DNA from: a virus
Lineage: Duplodnaviria; Heunggongvirae; Uroviricota; Caudoviricetes
Length of the DNA: 7,640 bases
IMG/VR virus record: IMGVR_UViG_2778261354_000005
Direction: 5' to 3' (one strand)
Below the pieces are notes generated by a model. That model was given only the letters and a program-made list of their open reading frames with translations. It was not told the origin of the DNA and ran no database searches. Both the position numbers and the translations under genes were made by a program. Positions within the stretch are counted from its first letter, which is position 1. The number at the start of each line of letters is the position of its first letter. This document shows positions 1 through 7,640 of this stretch, in pieces.

Positions 1-163
1 CTCGTTAGCCCATGAATAACAATCAGAAAGTACCATAACAGACCCGAAGAAAATGAAATATAAGAGAAGATCAACGGGTGAGGAAAAAGTTCAAAAAATC
101 GCTGCCGGGGAGGAAGGAAACTACCGGATGGAAAGAGTCCCCCTAAAGCAGACTGACAGACAT

Positions 164-189
164 CACAAATCCCCGGGTGGGGATTTGTG
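164..189. repeat. Perfect 11-bp inverted repeat / hairpin (CACAAATCCCC-gggt-GGGGATTTGTG) in the ORF-free gap downstream of the KilA-N gene
   Basis: Read directly: 164-174 is the exact reverse complement of 179-189, with a 4-nt loop. No U-run follows on either strand, so it is not a canonical intrinsic terminator. Function unknown. Confidence 0.6.
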
Positions 190-201
190 TATAAGAGACA
201 G
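183..201 (-). other. Solitary IS50/Tn5 outside-end-like 19-mer (minus strand CTGTCTCTTATACACAAAT); no transposase or partner end in the window
   Basis: 17/19 identity to the Tn5 outside end CTGACTCTTATACACAAGT as I recall it. The first 16 nt equal the mosaic end. The inner part of the 19-mer forms the right arm of the 164-189 hairpin. Confidence 0.3.
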
Positions 202-296
202 GCATAAACAGGGGCATCAGCTCTGAACCGGGTCTGAACAATACGATCCCCATACGCGGGGCAATTTCAGGGGTCAGTAGTGCTCTCACGGTCACC

Positions 297-1112
297 TCAA
301 TGAACGGTATCGAGCAGCTTTAACAGCTCAGGGAATCGGGATTCGAAGAAATGCGGCTGCGTCTCGCGCGGATTTGCGGGACTGGTGATGTTCTTGCCGA
401 ACATGCAGCCTTTCGCTGTCAGCGACCAGAATTTTTTGATGTTGTTAATCGCGGTACGGCTGTATCGTTCGCGTTGTTCAACGATCCCCAGCTTCGCCAT
501 CTGGTGATATGCCTGATTAGCCGTCAGGCGGATACCATACTGCTTCAGCAGTGCACTCAGCGACAGCGTAGGGCGGCTTGAACCATCTGGCGCATCAGCA
601 GGTGCATCAATGGCATAGATCGGCATAAGTTCAGGAAGACCAGCTACCTTTGATAATTTCTGGTATGCACCAAGTTTCGAGGAGTTTGACAGATTTAGAG
701 TCTTTGCTGCTGATTCAAGCAGAATGACCCCGGATTTAATTTTGTCGGATGTGGTTTCTTCTGGTGATGAATTATGAAGCGCATCAAAAGTACGTATCAC
801 TTTTAAGCTGAATGCCGGGCTGATCCACATTGCATATGCATAGACCAGCTCTTTACAGACATACGTCCCACCATTGCGCCCCTGAATGGTGATGACAGGA
901 ATACTACGGGAATCTCCCGTAGTTTCTTCTTCCAATAATTCCACAAGAGCCTTCGTTTCAGGACGACGCATAAACTCGTGAACTTCCAGCGAACGGGAGG
1001 AGCGATTCTCACCAGCGGCAAGAAGAGCAGCTTTCTGAAGGTCGTTAAGACAGTAGTTAGATTCGAAGTACTGGCGCACAGAAACGCCATCAATTACAAG
1101 CAACTGATTCAT
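297..1112 (-). CDS. KilA-N domain protein with a KilA-C/ANT-like C-terminal region (phage antirepressor-like)
   Basis: The ORF track gives 297-1124. The GTG at 1124 lies inside the Shine-Dalgarno GTGGAG, and the ATG at 1112 follows GGAG by 6 nt, so it is the preferred start (271 aa). The N-terminus carries the KilA-N signature (..GRNGGTYVCKELVYAYAMWISPAFSLKVIRTF..). The C-terminal ~90 aa resembles the ANT/KilA-C pattern. Confidence 0.8.
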   Translation of the reverse strand: MNQLLVIDGVSVRQYFESNYCLNDLQKAALLAAGENRSSRSLEVHEFMRRPETKALVELLEEETTGDSRSIPVITIQGRNGGTYVCKELVYAYAMWISPAFSLKVIRTFDALHNSSPEETTSDKIKSGVILLESAAKTLNLSNSSKLGAYQKLSKVAGLPELMPIYAIDAPADAPDGSSRPTLSLSALLKQYGIRLTANQAYHQMAKLGIVEQRERYSRTAINNIKKFWSLTAKGCMFGKNITSPANPRETQPHFFESRFPELLKLLDTVH

Positions 1113-1175
1113 TGGTTTCTCCACAAATTTTTATCCACGAGCGGGACTGCACTCCCTTTTCGTTGATGCAGGATG

Positions 1176-1269
1176 AACTTACTGCGATTTTTAATAGTTA
1201 TCAAGGATACACTGTTCATAAATACAGTATCTTTAACGAGGTAATACCCAAATTTAGGGTGTTGCTCAA
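1176..1269 (-). promoter_or_regulatory. Two candidate sigma70 promoters for the KilA-N gene, flanking the SOS box
   Basis: On the minus strand: TTGAGC (1269-1264)-N17-TATTAC (1246-1241), which places the SOS box about +5 to +25; and TTGATA (1204-1199)-N17-TAAGTT (1181-1176), which places the box 5 nt upstream of the -35. Hexamers were matched by eye only. Confidence 0.45.
1210..1229. promoter_or_regulatory. LexA (SOS) box upstream of the KilA-N/antirepressor-like gene
   Basis: The minus strand reads TACTGTATTTATGAACAGTG, a 16/20 match to the consensus TACTGTATATATATACAGTA, with an intact CTGT-N8-ACAG core. It lies in the 150-bp rusA/KilA-N intergenic region. Confidence 0.75.
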
Positions 1270-1274
1270 TTCCG

Positions 1275-1670
1275 TTACCGAGTTGCTAATTTGCAACTCG
1301 CTTTTTCGTACTTACTGATAGTGATCTCGACCTTCCCCTCCGGGATAACCGGTCCCCACTCCACCAGCATTCTTTTCACCTGTCTGTCGTCTTCCCACAC
1401 ACCCGCGTGGGTCAGGGCGTCAAACAGCGCCTTGTTATAGTTGTCCAGATCGCGGATCCGGTTATCCGGAGGAAACAACACGATCTCCACTGAAGCAGGT
1501 GCCGACGTTGGTTTCGGCAGACGACGTAACTGCTCAACTATTGCTGCACACGCCGCGCTCTGGAATTTTCGCCCCGCCGCGCTTATCAGGCTCTTACCAG
1601 CAAACGCCCCTTTGTTGGGGTGTCGCCAGTACGTGTTCACGCTGGGCGGAAAAGGCAGTATTAGCTTCAT
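1275..1670 (-). CDS. rusA: RusA-family crossover junction endodeoxyribonuclease (Holliday junction resolvase)
   Basis: 131 aa. It has the PPSxNxYWR N-terminal motif and the RDLDNYxKAxxDALT catalytic-Asp motif typical of RusA. Its ATGA start overlaps the upstream stop, and GAGGGG lies 9 nt upstream. Confidence 0.9.
   Translation of the reverse strand: MKLILPFPPSVNTYWRHPNKGAFAGKSLISAAGRKFQSAACAAIVEQLRRLPKPTSAPASVEIVLFPPDNRIRDLDNYNKALFDALTHAGVWEDDRQVKRMLVEWGPVIPEGKVEITISKYEKASCKLATR
1279..1306 (+). terminator. Plus-strand intrinsic-terminator-like hairpin embedded in the 3' end of the minus-strand rusA gene
   Basis: CGAGTTGC-taattt-GCAACTCG is an 8-bp perfect stem with a 6-nt loop, followed by C-TTTTT (1301-1306) on the + strand only. 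The minus-strand side has an A-run before the stem and no U-run after it. Confidence 0.45.
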
Positions 1671-1993
1671 ACTTTCAGGCCCCTCTCATGTAACCAGTGG
1701 GCTGCACGCAGCCTGGCGTTTGCCTCACCGGCAAGCAGGGCGCGGATAATCCCGACCGCCTCGCTGTCGTCGTCCTTCACCGCGGTATGAAGAGTGATAC
1801 CCCGGGCCACGCCACGCTTTATCGTGATGACACCTTTTTTCTCCAGTGCGCGAAGATGCTCCACCGCTGCATTCACCGAACGGTATCCCAGCATGGTTGC
1901 CACCTCCTGATTGGTTGGCGGGAAGCCACGTTCTTTCTGATAAGAAATCAGCATATCCAGCACCTGCTGCTGGCATTGAGTTAATGTCGTCAT
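1667..1993 (-). CDS. LexA N-terminal DNA-binding-domain-only protein (winged HTH; no S24 peptidase domain)
   Basis: 108 aa. Residues ~4-68 align by eye with E. coli LexA residues ~5-69, with about half the positions identical to my recollection, including the recognition-helix region RS-NAA-EHL-AL--KGVI and the following RGI-L. The protein ends about 40 aa later, so it has no Ser/Lys catalytic domain. ATGA overlaps occur at both ends. Confidence 0.85.
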   Translation of the reverse strand: MTTLTQCQQQVLDMLISYQKERGFPPTNQEVATMLGYRSVNAAVEHLRALEKKGVITIKRGVARGITLHTAVKDDDSEAVGIIRALLAGEANARLRAAHWLHERGLKV

Positions 1994-2643
1994 GCCGCCA
2001 TCTCCCTGACCAGTTTTTCCGCCTGCTGGCGAACCTGCGCCAGAAACGCCTCACCACATGCCTCAAGTTCATCGCGCCCGATGTAGCTGATTGCCGCTCC
2101 CTTCCAGGTCTTGTCGAAAACAGCAATAGCACCAGCGAAGAAAGCACCTGTTGGCACCTGCTTTTCGTCTTTCGGGATAAACCAGGCTGGCAGTTCAAAA
2201 CCAATACGCCCGCGAATAAAAGCAATATGATCTGCATCTTCCGGCCACCACACTTCGCTGGTGGCCGCTTTGATCAGGAAAACATAGCGCCCGCCCTTAT
2301 CACGCATGGCACTGGCATGTTTCATGATGTAACGCATGCCGGTGATGTATTGCCCCTCATGCTGACTGGCGCGGCTGTATGGGGGATTACCAAAGGCAGC
2401 ACCTTTAAGCTCCGCAAGACGTTCTGACCAGTCATGCGCCAGCGCGTTGTCTTCCGCCGTGTAATACGCGGCACATTTGGCGTTATCACCGTCAGTGAAC
2501 AGATCCAGAACAAACGGACCAAACAAGGTGTTAATTCCCCAGAAAATGTTGTCCGGCGTGCGCCACTGATCGCCCACTTCCTTCAGTTCATGGGCTGGTT
2601 TGTTCCGCAGTTCTACCAGCGCCTGGCAATATTTATTACTCAT
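1990..2643 (-). CDS. Phage Dam-type DNA N6-adenine methyltransferase
   Basis: It has the NPPY catalytic motif (..AAFGNPPYSR..) and a WRTPxxxF N-terminal motif typical of the phage_N6A_met/Dam family. The preferred start is the ATG at 2643 (MSNKY.., 217 aa), preceded by GGGGG, rather than the 2688 start in the ORF track. Confidence 0.88.
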   Translation of the reverse strand: MSNKYCQALVELRNKPAHELKEVGDQWRTPDNIFWGINTLFGPFVLDLFTDGDNAKCAAYYTAEDNALAHDWSERLAELKGAAFGNPPYSRASQHEGQYITGMRYIMKHASAMRDKGGRYVFLIKAATSEVWWPEDADHIAFIRGRIGFELPAWFIPKDEKQVPTGAFFAGAIAVFDKTWKGAAISYIGRDELEACGEAFLAQVRQQAEKLVREMAA

Positions 2644-2735
2644 TAAGCCCCCACGTAAAAAGCATCCGCAATGTCTCCGGAAGTACACCCCGGATGGGCT
2701 TCAATGAATTTCTGAACTTCATTCAAAAGACTCAT
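2643..2735 (-). CDS. 30-codon ORF (MSLLNEVQKFIEAHPGCTSGDIADAFYVGA), possibly a wHTH-like fragment, translationally coupled to the methyltransferase
   Basis: Not in the ORF track because it is too short. A strong SD, AGGGGGTGA, sits 2-3 nt before the ATG at 2735. Its stop TAA shares one base with the methyltransferase ATG (TAATG). It fills the only gap in an otherwise overlapping operon. Confidence 0.35.
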   Translation of the reverse strand: MSLLNEVQKFIEAHPGCTSGDIADAFYVGA

Positions 2736-3733: not shown

Positions 3734-4029
3734 ACAACCTCCTTCCGCAGCATGAGAATTGTGTAGCCACGCGCAGGTTGTAGTCTGGCTTTTGCATCAA
3801 TAGTAAGCGTTGCAATTTTTCGGATATGAAGATAACCAGCTCTTTCCAGTGCCAGGGTTTCCCTGAATATCGCTTGCTTAGAACAACAGCAGAAATCAGC
3901 AAGCACCTGATGATCAATAACTCTCTCGCCTTCACCGTCTGAAGAACCCGACATCAAAACACGCAACATAATCAGGCGCTGAATCGGGTTATCGAAAGCA
4001 CATCCGCACACAAACTGAAAACAGTTCAC
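3730..4029 (-). CDS. Hypothetical 99-aa Cys-rich protein with a possible winged-HTH
   Basis: GTG start with a GGAGG SD 6 nt upstream. It has a GTGA overlap with the upstream gene and an ATGA overlap with the downstream gene. It has six Cys, including a CCC run. The segment ..SKQAIFRETLALERAGYLHIRK.. looks like a wHTH. No family recognised. Confidence 0.6.
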   Translation of the reverse strand: MNCFQFVCGCAFDNPIQRLIMLRVLMSGSSDGEGERVIDHQVLADFCCCSKQAIFRETLALERAGYLHIRKIATLTIDAKARLQPARGYTILMLRKEVV

Positions 4030-4250
4030 GCCACACCTCCCAGACGCTTAAACATTTTTCCGGAGCAAAAGGCTATAAGCGGCATACTGACGCGGTAATT
4101 ACGGCCCAGCGGTTCACAAACCACCTTCTGACATTCACGGTCAACCAGGCTAACACGTAGAACATGCCCAGCAGGCGTGGTGTACCACTGACCCGGACGA
4201 GGACAACGGAAAGTATGATTGGTAAACCGTTTGAAAATATTCCGGATCAT
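4026..4250 (-). CDS. Hypothetical 74-aa protein (possibly DUF4222-like)
   Basis: ATGA overlap with the Rha ORF stop and GTGA overlap with the next gene. The size and the W-Y..G..V.V pattern are reminiscent of small lambdoid early proteins. The family call is weak. Confidence 0.55.
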   Translation of the reverse strand: MIRNIFKRFTNHTFRCPRPGQWYTTPAGHVLRVSLVDRECQKVVCEPLGRNYRVSMPLIAFCSGKMFKRLGGVA

Positions 4251-5407
4251 TTGCGCCCCCTTACCTCTGAAGGGTTCAGCGACAAATTTATGAGACAGGC
4301 CAGCGCCGAAGCATCATTAATATAGTCATATAAGCTAACAGCCAGCGGAGATTCGGCTTTTGCCAACATAGGATAAAGCTGCTGCAGCCAGACCTGATGA
4401 ATTGATGAAATGTAGGAACAGAGAACGCTGGCGTTATGTGCAACGTCGCTCGGTACAGCGGGCTTTGAAAGCTGTTTCTCCATCTGGTTAAAGGCATTTA
4501 TGTATGCCTCTTTGAACCGGGCAGCACGTTTACCCGTGAAACCCATAGCAAGAAACGCAAAACCGTCTCGTGTGATTTGATAGCAAGGGAGCTTGCGTGT
4601 ACCACCGTTCGGTTGATTTACCGAAATCGATGTCTCCGCAAAATTGCGGGCACAAAACTCTGGGGAACAATCCAGAGTGCGGATCTTTTTCAGCACATCG
4701 TCGTGACGCTTGGAGAAGAAGTTGGCAACAGCCAAAGAAGTGGTAACGGCCTGGCCGTTGTCAATGGTGATTTCAGGTTGAGTGAGGGCTGGGATCGTAG
4801 CCATGATGGCAGCCTCCGTTGACAGTGAAAAACTTCCACCACCGGAAACGCCAATTTCACTGGTGGTGAACTGGACGGGGTTGGCGTAACCGGCGTCAAC
4901 GGAGACCGGCGCACCTTTCGGTGCCCCCGCCCAGCCCACCATAATCTGGATGTGAGCAAATGCGGACGATAAAAAAGACGCTGGCGCGTCATACATCGCC
5001 GTTGACAATTTCAGGACGCCAATCCCGGCACCCGCTTTATAAGGTGCCTGAGCAGTGTAACGTCCCGGAATTGCAGAATCAATATGCTGGTGGTCCTTCA
5101 CACTCAACAAAATCACGCCTGAATTTCCACAAAGGACTAAAGCACTCATGCGGGTAGTCTTTGCGAAGATAGATAACGCGCTGTGTTTCTGGCTCCCAAC
5201 GAATAACATGGACATAAAGCCCTCTTCCGTCACGAAACCAGCGGTTAAGTTCCTGCACAACTCGCCCCCCACAGTCAGGTAAAGTTCTCTGTGGTTACTT
5301 ACAGCCAGGTGATTTGGTAATCTGCATTCATGCCGTAACAACAGGTGTTCAGCGACGCTGACCACCAGCTGTTGCGACAAACGGTTATTTGCCGTTAAAC
5401 TATTCAT
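4247..5407 (-). CDS. 386-codon ORF: an unknown 201-aa N-terminal region fused in frame to a Rha-family phage regulatory protein (C-terminal 185 aa)
   Basis: Residues ~212-330 carry the Phage_pRha pattern (..TTSLAVANFFSKRHDDVLKKIRTL..YQITRDGFAFLAMGFTGKRAARFKEAYINAF..). The ATG at 5407 overlaps the YmfL-like stop (ATGA). There is no stop codon between the N-terminal region and the Rha part. Confidence 0.65.
   Translation of the reverse strand: MNSLTANNRLSQQLVVSVAEHLLLRHECRLPNHLAVSNHRELYLTVGGELCRNLTAGFVTEEGFMSMLFVGSQKHSALSIFAKTTRMSALVLCGNSGVILLSVKDHQHIDSAIPGRYTAQAPYKAGAGIGVLKLSTAMYDAPASFLSSAFAHIQIMVGWAGAPKGAPVSVDAGYANPVQFTTSEIGVSGGGSFSLSTEAAIMATIPALTQPEITIDNGQAVTTSLAVANFFSKRHDDVLKKIRTLDCSPEFCARNFAETSISVNQPNGGTRKLPCYQITRDGFAFLAMGFTGKRAARFKEAYINAFNQMEKQLSKPAVPSDVAHNASVLCSYISSIHQVWLQQLYPMLAKAESPLAVSLYDYINDASALACLINLSLNPSEVRGRK
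4802..4817 (-). promoter_or_regulatory. Internal ribosome-binding site plus ATG at the start of the Rha domain (alternative 185-aa product, 4247-4804)
   Basis: The minus strand reads GGAGG (4817-4813), then ctgccatc, then ATG (4804-4802). This is a consensus SD with 8-nt spacing, exactly where Rha-family proteins normally begin (MATIPALTQPEITI..). Confidence 0.55.
5289..5304. promoter_or_regulatory. Weak SOS-box-like CTGT-N8-ACAG motif inside the 5' part of the 386-codon ORF
   Basis: CTGTGGTTACTTACAG has an intact core, but the spacer is GC-containing and the flanks are non-consensus (CT..CC), so predicted affinity is low. Confidence 0.25.
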
Positions 5408-5961
5408 GCGTTAGTTTCTCCACAACCAGAAGCAATCGACGCCACGACGCCCGGAGCTGCACACTCGCGGGCGTTACTATTTTCTGGAGCGCAGAAGATT
5501 TTGTAGACCAGTGCTGCATGCTCCTGGAGCTTCGAAATTGAAAGATACAGTTCGTCGTTAATTGCTGTCTTCTCATGCGGTTCCACTACACCGTCTTCGA
5601 TTGCTGAACGAATCTGTTTTGAATAACTGCCGATCTGTTCAATGACTTCCAGTAAACGCTGGTTAATATCGGCATTGTCCACATCCTCGACGTCAGGAAG
5701 AGACACAAAGACGCCATTTGCAGACTGCGCCACAGCGTCAGCAATGAAGTGAGTGCCACCAGCACGTTGTAAAATCATTGCCCATCCCAGCGGGAAAATC
5801 TGATCGCCATCGGCACGAAGGCGGTTAAATAATGCGTTCTCTGTTACATCCAGCCACTCAGCAGCTTCAGCGTAACCCTCCGGCAACGCCGCGATAGTTT
5901 TTCTGACAGCTTTCACGTACCACTCAGGCTGTTTTTCCACTTTCCAGTTATGATTACCCAC
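5404..5961 (-). CDS. ymfL: YmfL-family putative regulatory protein (occupies the cII-like position after cro)
   Basis: 185 aa. GTG start with a GGAGG SD 6 nt upstream, and an 8-nt overlap with the Cro-like gene. The size and position (immediately after cro in an e14-type immunity region) match my recollection of e14 YmfL. The assignment rests on synteny and memory, not a search. Confidence 0.6.
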   Translation of the reverse strand: MGNHNWKVEKQPEWYVKAVRKTIAALPEGYAEAAEWLDVTENALFNRLRADGDQIFPLGWAMILQRAGGTHFIADAVAQSANGVFVSLPDVEDVDNADINQRLLEVIEQIGSYSKQIRSAIEDGVVEPHEKTAINDELYLSISKLQEHAALVYKIFCAPENSNARECAAPGVVASIASGCGETNA

Positions 5962-6214
5962 GGCTTACCTCCTGTTCCTGTGGTTTAAACCCATTCTGGT
6001 TTTGGCTAGATTGAAAACGTGCCGGATAAAGAATCTGCATTTCGCTGATTTCACCCTTAAAAAAATTGGCCAGACGTTCTGCAAGATCGATAGATGGAAT
6101 TTGTTCCAGTCTTTCAATACGACTCAGCGTCGCTGGATTGACCTGAACGCCAGCAGCAACATGCTGCAAAGTAAATCCGTGCGTCTTACGCACATTCCGT
6201 AATGGTGATTGCAT
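5954..6214 (-). CDS. Cro-like XRE-family HTH regulator
   Basis: 86 aa, divergent from the repressor gene. The HTH segment is ..FTLQHVAAGVQVNPATLSRIERLEQIPS... A GGAGG SD (6223-6219) lies 4 nt before the ATG at 6214. Confidence 0.8.
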   Translation of the reverse strand: MQSPLRNVRKTHGFTLQHVAAGVQVNPATLSRIERLEQIPSIDLAERLANFFKGEISEMQILYPARFQSSQNQNGFKPQEQEVSRG

Positions 6215-6311: not shown

Positions 6312-7004
6312 ATGAACATAGGAAACCGAGTCAGACAACTTCGCCAGGCGAAGAACATGAAAATCGCCGATCTCGCTGAAGCAATAGGAGTGGATGCGGC
6401 GAATATCTCACGCCTGGAAACAGGTAAGCAGAAACAATTCACTGAACAAGCCCTGAGTAATATTGCCAGGAGCTTAGGTGTTGATATTGCTGATCTCTTT
6501 ACCTCAGACGTCAAAAGTAATACTGTATTTAAAAACAGTATTAGTGAGGATGTTGCGCAGGTGAAGGATGTATTCCGTATTGAAATGCTGGATGTCAGTG
6601 CCAGTGCGGGAAATGGCCTTATCCAGGGCGGTGATGTCATTGATGTGATTCATGCCATTGAATACAGAACTGATAATGCTGTATCGATGTTTGGCGGACG
6701 GCCAGCCAATCACATTAAAGTTATCAACGTTCGTGGGGACAGTATGTGTCCAACCATTGAGCCAGGAGATCTCATCTTCGTTGATGTCAGTATCAATCAG
6801 TTTGATGGAGATGGTATCTATGTATTTGGTTTTGATGATAAAATTTATGTCAAACGACTGCAAATGATACCTGACAAACTACTGGTGATTTCTGATAACC
6901 AGATTTACCGTGAATGGGGAATTACCAGCGAAAATGAACACCGGTTTATGGTCTTTGGAAAGGTCTTAATCAGCCAGTCACAAACCCTTAAGCGACACAA
7001 TTAA
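6312..7004 (+). CDS. cI-like prophage repressor: XRE HTH plus LexA/S24 autopeptidase domain
   Basis: 230 aa. N-terminal HTH (..IADLAEAIGVDAANISRLETGKQ..). Candidate Ala99-Gly100 cleavage site (SASAGNG). Catalytic Ser144 lies in GDSMCPTI and Lys181 in YVKRL. The Ser-Lys spacing is 37 residues, as in LexA. Confidence 0.9.
   Translation: MNIGNRVRQLRQAKNMKIADLAEAIGVDAANISRLETGKQKQFTEQALSNIARSLGVDIADLFTSDVKSNTVFKNSISEDVAQVKDVFRIEMLDVSASAGNGLIQGGDVIDVIHAIEYRTDNAVSMFGGRPANHIKVINVRGDSMCPTIEPGDLIFVDVSINQFDGDGIYVFGFDDKIYVKRLQMIPDKLLVISDNQIYREWGITSENEHRFMVFGKVLISQSQTLKRHN
6521..6540. promoter_or_regulatory. Near-consensus LexA (SOS) box inside the cI-like coding sequence
   Basis: TACTGTATTTAAAAACAGTA is a 17/20 match to TACTGTATATATATACAGTA, with perfect 8-bp arms AATACTGT/ACAGTATT (6519-6542). 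It encodes N70-I77 in the interdomain linker. Confidence 0.7.
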
Positions 7005-7024
7005 CCCTTACCTCCTCATCAATT

Positions 7025-7046
7025 AGCCACCCAAAGGTGGCTTTTC
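7025..7046 (+). terminator. Rho-independent terminator of the repressor gene
   Basis: AGCCACC-caaa-GGTGGCT has a 7-bp stem and a 4-nt loop. Its last base begins the run TTTT (7042-7045), and it starts 21 nt after the cI stop. Confidence 0.75.
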
Positions 7047-7059
7047 ATTACCCTTTAAA

Positions 7060-7112
7060 TTGCATATCTCGCAATAAAAACACTTGCATAATGCGCAACT
7101 TCATTTTATCTT
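7060..7112 (+). promoter_or_regulatory. OL/PL-like region: two operator-like dyads and a rightward promoter
   Basis: TTGCATATCTCGCAA (7060-7074) and TTGCATAATGCGCAA (7084-7098) share the TTGC-N7-GCAA architecture of the 6277-6291 site, and their centres are 24 bp apart. The candidate promoter TTGCAT (7084-7089)-N17-TATCTT (7107-7112) overlaps the second dyad. Confidence 0.5.
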
Positions 7113-7118
7113 TCTTTC

Positions 7119-7570
7119 CAGACAAACAAACAAGGTACTAACAAAATTTGGTTGTAACACGGCGTATGGCACATGCGTCGTTAGCGGTCTGGGGACGTTA
7201 AAGGGGACAATCCACTCCTTGCTCGAGCAAACAAACCAGGTAGCCGGAATGTGCAAGTCAATGATGATGCTGATAAGACGCCTAACCAGCGTGGCGATTC
7301 GGTTTGACGCCTGGGAAGAGACCAGGGTGCAACGATGAGGGCATTTATGGAGCCGCGACAAAGTGTGGTGCTGTAACTGGCTAAGTGCTCTCAGCGTTGT
7401 GGTAATCCGCGAAATGGCGCGGCGGTAAGTATGGCGGGGTTACTCTTTCCCCGTTGAGGACACCGGATTGTCAGGTTGACCATACGCCTGAGTGACAACC
7501 CCACCACAACAGCCACTGCTTTGGCGGTACCAGTTTGTACCCTTGCTTCCGGCTGGTACCGCTCTTTTTA
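7119..7570 (+). ncRNA. Candidate long untranslated, structured leader/ncRNA downstream of the PL-like promoter
   Basis: No ORF has both a credible start and an SD; the best are peptides of 8-31 codons. There is dense complementarity, including nested helices at 7396-7510. It ends at a 10-bp hairpin plus T-run. The extent and the existence of the transcript are inferred, not shown. Confidence 0.3.
7524..7570 (+). terminator. 10-bp perfect hairpin followed by CGCTCTTTTTA: an atypical terminator and/or a boxA-like nut element
   Basis: GCGGTACCAG (7524-7533) pairs with CTGGTACCGC (7553-7562), leaving a 19-nt loop. The sequence then continues as CGCTCTTTTTACAA (7560-7573), which resembles boxA (lambda CGCTCTTA; rrn TGCTCTTTAACAA). 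The large loop weakens a terminator call. Confidence 0.35.
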
Positions 7571-7640
7571 CAAAACAGAGAAGAGCATCACCGGACGACG
7601 GGCTCATAACCCAATCCATCCGGGCGGCTGCCACCGCAGG

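Follow-up and report, generated by a model that had tools for sequence, protein, structure and literature searches.

What governs expression of the KilA-N family gene in the early-right region of a lambdoid prophage, and can DNA damage reach that gene by a route that does not pass through the phage repressor? The question is raised by a 7,640-nt stretch of the Caudoviricetes record IMGVR_UViG_2778261354_000005 (hereafter the window), which takes in the immunity region and the early-right region of a lambdoid prophage, in reverse orientation. An earlier note on this DNA had drawn attention to positions 1176-1269, just upstream of the KilA-N gene, and had described there a LexA (SOS) box between or over two promoter candidates. 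It had further proposed that the gene encodes a LexA-controlled antirepressor in a phage that already possesses a self-cleaving repressor. The limits of this segment coincide with the outer hexamers of the two promoter candidates, P2 at 1176 and P1 at 1269 (Table 1). The reading that we favour, on balance and by no great measure, is that the gap ahead of the gene holds a LexA-gated, cI-independent internal promoter that serves the KilA-N regulator and, where the prophage is intact, Q as well. LexA-controlled prophage modules are already known, and in the best reading a LexA-gated KilA-N(-Q) promoter would be a new form of that class.

From the rusA stop (1275) to the KilA-N ATG (1112) there is a gap of 162 bp. 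The box within it, at 1210-1229, agrees with the consensus TACTGTATATATATACAGTA at 16 of 20 positions, and its CTGT-N8-ACAG core (CTGTTCATAAATACAG, 1212-1227) is perfect, a palindrome of the E. coli SOS-box type with an A/T-rich spacer. Three such cores occur in the window, against 0.10 expected. The box was scored with a LexA position weight matrix (PWM) made from an informal list of 28 E. coli LexA sites known from the literature. By this matrix it reaches 21.9 bits, which falls in the range of the proven sites used for training (12.5-26.8, median 20.0), and none of 300 Markov-1 random windows attained 20 bits, the maximum being 16.9. The heterology-type index, based on the same list, is 4.8 for the box and 5.7 for the training median. 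Judged from the sequence, the SOS box is real, its score far exceeding what chance would give, and the description of it as a 16/20 box directly upstream of the KilA-N gene is upheld.

Conservation of the box was assessed in fifty loci, one genome per species, carrying KilA-N orthologues at 45-69% identity. According to the gap between the orthologue and its upstream gene, the loci show a short layout (16-42 bp, 18 loci) or a long one (at least 64 bp, 29 loci), and the best LexA-matrix score was taken between -170 and -50 of the ATG. Among the long-gap loci, 14 of 29 have a PWM score of at least 10 and 12 of 29 a score of at least 12.5, compared with 0.44% and 0.26%, respectively, of random 120-nt windows of the same loci. 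No LexA-like palindrome was found in any of the 18 short-gap loci, where no score exceeded 0.6. In the 14 box-bearing long-gap loci the palindrome lies at -75 to -165, and in 12 of them at -75 to -137. The genera with such positional palindromes, which range across Enterobacterales, are Citrobacter, Enterobacter, Leclercia, Raoultella, Pantoea, Rosenbergiella, Serratia, Erwinia and Edwardsiella. The palindromes vary in sequence (for example AACTGTTCAAACATACAGGT, TAGTGGATGTACATACAGGT, TACTGGTTACACGATCAGTA and GGCTGTTTTAATATCCAGTA) but retain CTG(T/G)-N8-(A/C/T)CAG. This comparative evidence supports the assignment of the box at 1210-1229 as a functional SOS operator. Boxes are also present in loci that have no gene for a truncated LexA homologue, such as the window contains, within 3 kb, which points to host LexA as the usual ligand. 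We also asked whether the box is strictly tied to the gene for truncated LexA, and found no such linkage across the loci.

The box does lie between two promoter candidates. The predicted start of P2 is at ~1169, and 5 nt separate the box from the P2 -35 hexamer downstream of it; relative to P1, the box would occupy about +5 to +24. In 10 of the 12 Enterobacteriaceae-type loci, the best promoter candidate starts 4-5 nt past the box and has a 17-nt spacer, with the -10 hexamer ending 58-63 nt from the ATG. The -35/17/-10 candidates of the Enterobacteriaceae-type loci read TTGAAA...TAAGGT or TAATGT. In the Pantoea-type loci a -35-like hexamer lies within the palindrome, according to a reading by eye. 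P1 was rejected as the main promoter: it is without the T at -7, and it is unconserved outside the E. coli/Shigella module because the corresponding DNA in other genera is rusA coding sequence. The conserved promoter candidate is P2, not P1.

The consequences of such a promoter depend on the genes that follow it. In intact relatives KilA-N, DUF968 and Q are spaced by 7-20 nt, DUF968 starting 7 nt past KilA-N and preceding Q, and in one relative (locus L006) the first strong same-strand terminator lies directly past Q. Given this tight unit, a LexA-gated promoter would also make Q. We propose that the 162-bp spacer is a self-contained regulatory cassette ahead of the KilA-N gene, in which an operator for host LexA abuts the upstream edge of P2, a putative and moderately weak sigma-70 promoter; in the E. 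coli/Shigella version, the operator would also lie over the early transcribed region of the weaker candidate P1. In a lysogen, cI would silence PR, and LexA bound at 1210-1229 would silence the internal promoter. Upon self-cleavage of LexA triggered by RecA*, this promoter would fire independently of cI and yield a transcript composed of a leader with a UGCAG-loop hairpin, then KilA-N and, through read-through in intact relatives, DUF968 and Q. The KilA-N gene, together with Q in intact relatives, is thus probably induced by DNA damage independently of the phage repressor. If it is LexA-controlled in this way, common E. coli/Shigella prophages would gain a path, separate from the cI switch, by which DNA damage turns on phage genes. 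In intact copies the route would reach the Q antiterminator, with lysis and, in Stx-type phages, the toxin genes behind it. It would then have a bearing on the speed and the SOS level of prophage firing, and on prophage cross-talk in polylysogens.

Several observations weigh against this proposal. The LexA weight matrix depends on an informal list of sites. P2 matches the promoter consensus at 8 of 12 positions and did not pass a strict consensus scan. The centre of the box lies at about -50 of P2, upstream of the -35 hexamer. In most tightly repressed SOS genes the LexA box covers the -35/-10/+1 region; the placement found here could therefore give partial repression. It should also be mentioned that the box is evolutionarily labile. 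Five further orthologues of N-terminal type A score 0.8, 5.5, 12.4, 13.2 and 10.9, and the closest orthologue outside E. coli, that of Citrobacter farmeri (80% identity), has the spacer and the hairpin and no box (PWM 0.8). In the window itself ISEc13 interrupts DUF968 and parts KilA-N from Q, so that the Q part of the proposal cannot operate in this genome. Literature searches gave no data on LexA binding, transcription start or inducibility; they also found no paper on the 162-bp cassette or on the KilA-N protein family.

The leader between P2 and the Shine-Dalgarno region of the KilA-N gene contains a hairpin made of an invariant loop, N-UGCAG, on a covarying stem. TGCAG occurs within 80 nt of the ATG in 27 of the 30 long-gap leaders, and in nearly all such leaders it forms the loop of a hairpin with variable stem sequence. 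In a gapless alignment of 15 sequences 89% of the cells are paired, and the covariation is 0.975, compared with 0.30 in shuffles (0 of 500) and at most 0.45 in slid controls. The hairpin is found in the KilA-N leaders of nearly all Enterobacteriaceae, Erwiniaceae and Gilliamella orthologues, and Morganellaceae have a hairpin with a different loop. Short-gap Enterobacteriaceae phages carry GGCGG-(G/U)UGCAG-CCGCC within the 3' end of rusA. Since the hairpin is present in these phages too, it is part of the mRNA of the gene and not of the LexA cassette. No Rfam family matches it. A role as a target of the C4 or isrK RNA was tried and rejected, as the duplex energies equalled those of shuffled controls and neither RNA contains CUGCA. 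Likewise, the hairpin is not considered an HK022 put-like element, because neither UGCAG hairpins nor GTGGAG occur in the HK022 PL/PR leader regions. It is noted that UGCAG-loop hairpins beside a GTGGAGAA motif are also seen in the PL-operon leader of relatives, just past the right end of the window. Copies of the UGCAG hairpin lie at 3916-3931 in locus L002, at 13465-13484 in L006, and at 7701-7720 and 7793-7806 in L057. In the window, a 36-codon open reading frame (ORF) occupies 1109-1219 on the minus strand; its ATG lies inside the LexA box and its end forms an ATGA overlap with the KilA-N start codon. It begins upstream of P2 and would therefore be present only on P1 or PR transcripts.

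The resident cI had been credited with a complete S24 catalytic set and an Ala-Gly site, and both were located: Ser144 in GDSM, Lys181 in VKRL (aligned to LexA Lys156), and a single Ala99-Gly100. By these predicted features cI is a complete repressor of the self-cleaving S24 type, with an N-terminal helix-turn-helix (HTH), a Ser-Lys dyad and an Ala-Gly linker site. A second LexA box is found inside the linker codons of cI, and it is the highest-scoring one in the window, above the box at 1210-1229. SfII (TACTGTATATAAAAACAGTA), AZ187 and C227 have this box at the same codons. So does a Klebsiella phage with a 71%-identical cI (TACTGTACATATAAACAGTG); its linker residues nearby are no longer alike, and only the codons for Thr-Val and Asn-Ser, which spell CTGT and ACAG, are left. 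Two genes upstream of KilA-N, in the same operon, lies the gene for the truncated LexA homologue. This 108-aa protein aligns to residues 2-70 of E. coli LexA (E 6e-16), with a LexA_DNA_bind domain at residues 1-65, no S24 protease domain, and a conserved C-terminal helix whose A-G-E motif aligns to the LexA cleavage site. Among its homologues, which share 41-48% identity with LexA, Ser39, Asn41, Arg64 and Gly65 are invariant and A-G-E is kept. Together with the C4/isrK-controlled Rha gene and the KilA-N-DUF968-Q unit, the cI-internal box and the truncated LexA change the picture that the earlier note had drawn.

A third strong LexA box (for example TACTGTAAAAATAAACAGTG; PWM 22.6-23.7) was seen in the relatives L005 (3787-3806), L006 (2708-2727), L011, L026 and L047, between +2459 and +3164 relative to the start of KilA-N. 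A DNA-methyltransferase gene follows Q in L005, and the box overlaps its opening codons; in L006 the box lies just within the start of the methyltransferase gene. These prophages might then have a small LexA-box regulon of their own, made up of the KilA-N-DUF968-Q promoter, the cI-internal box and the methyltransferase box, all read by host LexA and by the truncated, non-cleavable LexA; we regard this as a tentative and rather improbable extension. If it were true, DNA damage would act directly on the expression of Q and cI, in parallel to cI self-cleavage. The cI-internal box and the truncated LexA gene lend themselves to testable predictions of a further level of SOS control in lambdoid phages.

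The KilA-N gene had been described as KilA-N plus ANT-like, of which the first part stood and the second did not. A KilA-N domain occupies residues 10-114 (Pfam PF04383, E 1.3e-15, 57.6 bits against a gathering cut-off of 23.8) and resembles that of P1 KilA (37% identity over residues 4-109). The C-terminal 157 aa (115-271) match no Pfam family even at E<=10, including ANT/KilAC PF03374, and no match for this half was returned by NCBIfam or PDB sequence-profile searches. With the fold search blank as well, an ANT/KilAC identity of the C-terminal half was rejected: the AlphaFold model of the protein, with a predicted local distance difference test score (pLDDT) of 73, has no match in the PDB below E 0.3. 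Its structure matches in BFVD are viral KilA-N proteins and are driven by the KilA-N domain. Neither an ANT/KilAC nor a P22-antirepressor profile is matched by the 271-aa protein. A search of a large protein collection with the last 96 aa as query found fragments and frameshift fusions for the most part, and no informative architectures, and PADLOC gave only a weak KilA-N-type match, the candidate PDC-S22. The family corresponds to PHROG 129, annotated as 'transcriptional regulator'. The C-terminal module is nevertheless conserved, and it recurs behind Bro-N-type or Rha-type N-termini in phage proteins of Pseudomonas, Klebsiella and Ruminococcus, some of which carry an antirepressor annotation. 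The KilA-N protein thus belongs to a shuffled Bro/KilA/Rha class that is often labelled antirepressor.

These properties bear on the proposal that the KilA-N protein is a LexA-controlled antirepressor, either of its own cI, as a second and faster route to induction, or of co-resident repressors, as a means of cross-induction. The LexA box and a promoter candidate are in place, and a DNA-binding-type domain at the N-terminus is combined with a separable C-terminal module that is in part annotated as antirepressor elsewhere. LexA-controlled antirepressors are established, and Fels-1, a phage with a cleavable CI, makes an antirepressor against other prophages (PMC3121763). Against this stand the blank profile and fold searches and the PHROG 129 annotation. 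Copies of the protein in the window, SfIV, FRIK944, AZ187 and C227 share at least 99.3% identity, and the cI proteins linked to these near-identical copies are of three types, 21-31% identical. A cognate antirepressor is expected to track its repressor; the constancy of the protein beside three divergent S24 repressors, with no covariation with immunity, argues against such a role. All three linked cI types carry Peptidase_S24, so an antirepressor is not needed. In many relatives the KilA-N gene has neither its own promoter nor a box and is simply part of the PR operon; its product would then appear only once repression had been lifted. For the Rha gene, which follows the C4 and isrK RNAs in the layout of the P1 immI region, the PHROG matches include 'anti-repressor Ant', and this C4/isrK-controlled gene is the better and more conventional antirepressor candidate in the window. 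We therefore consider the antirepressor proposal unlikely, if still worth keeping in view; by analogy with Fels-1, a broad trans-acting antirepressor role is possible. The antirepressor label for the KilA-N gene is not supported; most likely the protein regulates by binding DNA and has a target other than the repressor of its own phage.

The other alternatives concern the box itself. It could be mainly the operator of the phage's truncated, non-cleavable LexA, which would activate P2 during lytic growth or re-close LexA promoters once host LexA is destroyed, with host LexA possibly acting alongside. The 108-aa protein keeps Ser39, Asn41, Arg64 and Gly65 in the part that aligns to LexA, and its gene is a close neighbour within the operon. 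The fixed offset of 4-5 nt from the box to the -35 hexamer is an activator-like geometry, and in GIL01 the truncated LexA homologue gp6 works as an activator at a site that overlaps the -35 (PMC6182141). The same prophages hold further strong LexA boxes, in cI and at the methyltransferase gene. However, loci of Pantoea, Rosenbergiella, Serratia and Erwinia have strong boxes and no such gene within 3 kb, and the short-gap phages SfII and Stx2a_1447 have the gene but no box before KilA-N. Furthermore, Glu45 of the recognition helix is variable among the homologues, and dimerisation and DNA binding of the protein are only putative. This alternative is quite unlikely in our view, though a live rival of, or addition to, control by host LexA. 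LexA at the box could also act as a roadblock to PR transcription arriving from rusA, so that expression of Q and the late genes would be restrained in undamaged cells soon after infection and released under SOS. The box is indeed in the path of the early-right transcript before KilA-N-DUF968-Q, and there is no same-strand terminator around it. A roadblock would leave the conserved promoter-like hexamers beside the box unexplained, the box is absent in many relatives, and to our knowledge LexA roadblocking is not an established mechanism; we hold it to be very improbable. That the palindrome is a chance or relic sequence without a regulatory role is scarcely credible: several close orthologous spacers are without a box, but no random window attains its score and LexA-type palindromes are found at the same offset in many genera.

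The LexA-gated, cI-independent promoter for KilA-N and Q, which remains the favoured reading, can be compared with known systems. 186 Tum, N15 AntC and SPC32H Ant are LexA-repressed, demonstrated antirepressors of non-cleavable repressors. They share with the window a host LexA operator, here predicted, at the promoter of a single phage gene whose response to DNA damage is, in the window, likewise a prediction; in contrast to them, the window shows neither homology nor repressor linkage. P1 KilA is similar in its N-terminal KilA-N domain and differs in its C-terminal module and genomic position, and we know of no LexA control of this gene. In Salmonella, the Gifsy-1, -2 and -3 prophages carry a LexA-controlled dinI-antirepressor (gfoA/gftA) locus (Lemire, Figueroa-Bossi and Bossi 2011, PMC3121763). 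As in the window, where the promoter is a candidate, a LexA box with its own promoter lies between the replication genes and Q (nin region) of a lambdoid prophage (PMC3121763), and a phage regulator is expressed in a cI-independent, SOS-dependent manner, which for the window is a prediction. However, the Gifsy products are small antirepressors accompanied by a dinI homologue, whereas the window product is a 271-aa KilA-N protein without similarity to them; the Gifsy repressors are without a cleavage domain, whereas the window repressor is of the S24 type; and the transcription unit of the window type would run on into Q in intact relatives. Fels-1 FsoA is an antirepressor that comes from a phage with a cleavable CI and acts on Gifsy repressors (PMC3121763). 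It is a precedent for cross-induction, in that a CI-like cleavable repressor coexists with a factor against other prophages, but FsoA is controlled by the Fels-1 repressor and not by LexA, and it is a homologue of GftA (PMC3121763). In GIL01, the truncated LexA homologue gp6 activates the late promoter P3 (Fornelos et al. 2018, PMC6182141). A phage-encoded LexA DNA-binding domain without the protease domain and LexA boxes at phage promoters are common to both (PMC6182141). GIL01 differs in being a Gram-positive tectivirus without a cI-type repressor, and an activator role of the window homologue is only a candidate.

The cassette seems to have arrived by exchange. Relative to Stx2a_1447, mEp460_4F5 and SfII, in which the KilA-N gene begins 19 bp past rusA and has no box, the segment 870-1298 is a mosaic replacement that spans the first ~80 KilA-N codons, all of the gap and the final 8 codons of rusA. 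The replaced segment is present in only five phage records. The cassette was found in 186 of 5426 complete E. coli genomes (3.4%), with O104:H4 C227-11, O157:H7 FRIK944, O55:H7 CB9615 and S88 among the carriers. All five aligned variants (window, SfIV, FRIK944, AZ187 and C227) keep the CTGT-N8-ACAG core, and the box variant of SfIV and AZ187 matches the consensus at 17 of 20 positions, ending ...CAGTA. A 30-bp stretch at 1277-1306, the hairpin at the end of rusA, has a 90% identical copy inside the KilA gene of Stx2a_1447 (L002 3718-3747), and this repeat may be a recombination scar.

The positions of the features are collected in Table 1.

Table 1. Features of the 7,640-nt window, from the regulatory elements ahead of the KilA-N gene to the neighbouring genes
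Feature	Position	Strand	Remarks
P1 candidate	1241-1269	-	-35 TTGAGC 1269-1264, 17-nt spacer, -10 TATTAC 1246-1241
LexA (SOS) box	1210-1229		palindrome; - strand TACTGTATTTATGAACAGTG (1229-1210), + strand CACTGTTCATAAATACAGTA
P2 candidate	1176-1204	-	-35 TTGATA 1204-1199, 17-nt spacer, -10 TAAGTT 1181-1176
Leader hairpin	1138-1162	-	core GGGA-GUGCAG-UCCC at 1156-1143
Shine-Dalgarno region GTGGAG of KilA-N gene	1119-1124	-	nearly invariant between genera
Second LexA box, TACTGTATTTAAAAACAGTA	6521-6540		within cI linker codons 70-77; 17/20, PWM 25.0
cI repressor	6312-7004	+	HTH and Peptidase_S24; mEp460/SfII immunity type
cro	5954-6214	-	
CP76/YmfL-type cII	5404-5961		
isrK RNA	4971-5047	-	62 bits
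C4 antisense RNA	4859-4946	-	81 bits
Rha-family gene	4247-4804	-	3' of C4/isrK RNAs
Dam-type methylase	1990-2646		replication genes between Rha gene and methylase
Truncated LexA homologue	1667-1993	-	108 aa
rusA	1275-1670	-	last 8 codons within exchanged mosaic segment 870-1298
KilA-N family gene	297-1112	-	271 aa; PHROG 129
DUF968/HNH-like gene, 5' remnant	202-289	-	
ISEc13 (IS4 family) end	1-201		terminal repeat CTGTCTCTTATACACA at 183-201, reverse strand

The prophage carrying the KilA-N gene is lambdoid and SfIV/CPS-53-like, its nearest phages by identity being PhiR49_1 and Shigella phage SfIV (99%). Phage and prophage homology begins at position 202 in every match, and the DNA to the left of it is ISEc13. 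The 162-bp gap had been called the only sizeable one of the operon. It is the biggest protein-free, non-RNA-coding gap on the minus strand, but the region of the isrK and C4 RNAs (~4805-5400) is probably non-coding too, although a 386-codon ORF spans it. This ORF and a Pfam Phage_ASH match cross both RNA genes, and the part of the ORF across them may be untranslated.

Within the 3' end of rusA, a terminator-like hairpin followed by a T run was noted at 1279-1307 on the plus strand, antisense to the operon; it reads CGAGTTGC-TAATTT-GCAACTCG, then CTTTTT. An antisense small RNA ending at this terminator was considered and rejected, as no acceptable plus-strand promoter was found by eye or by scan. 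At the other end of the window, in the region 3' of the cI terminator (7005-7640, plus strand), inspection by eye revealed operator-like repeats, TTGCATATCTCGCAA and TTGCATAATGCGCAA, at ~7057-7100. Beyond them runs a long untranslated leader, rich in G+C, in which a strong terminator-like hairpin, also read by eye, lies at 7523-7569 (GGCGGTACCAG...CTGGTACCGC TCTTTTT). In relatives the first PL gene begins ~130 nt further along.

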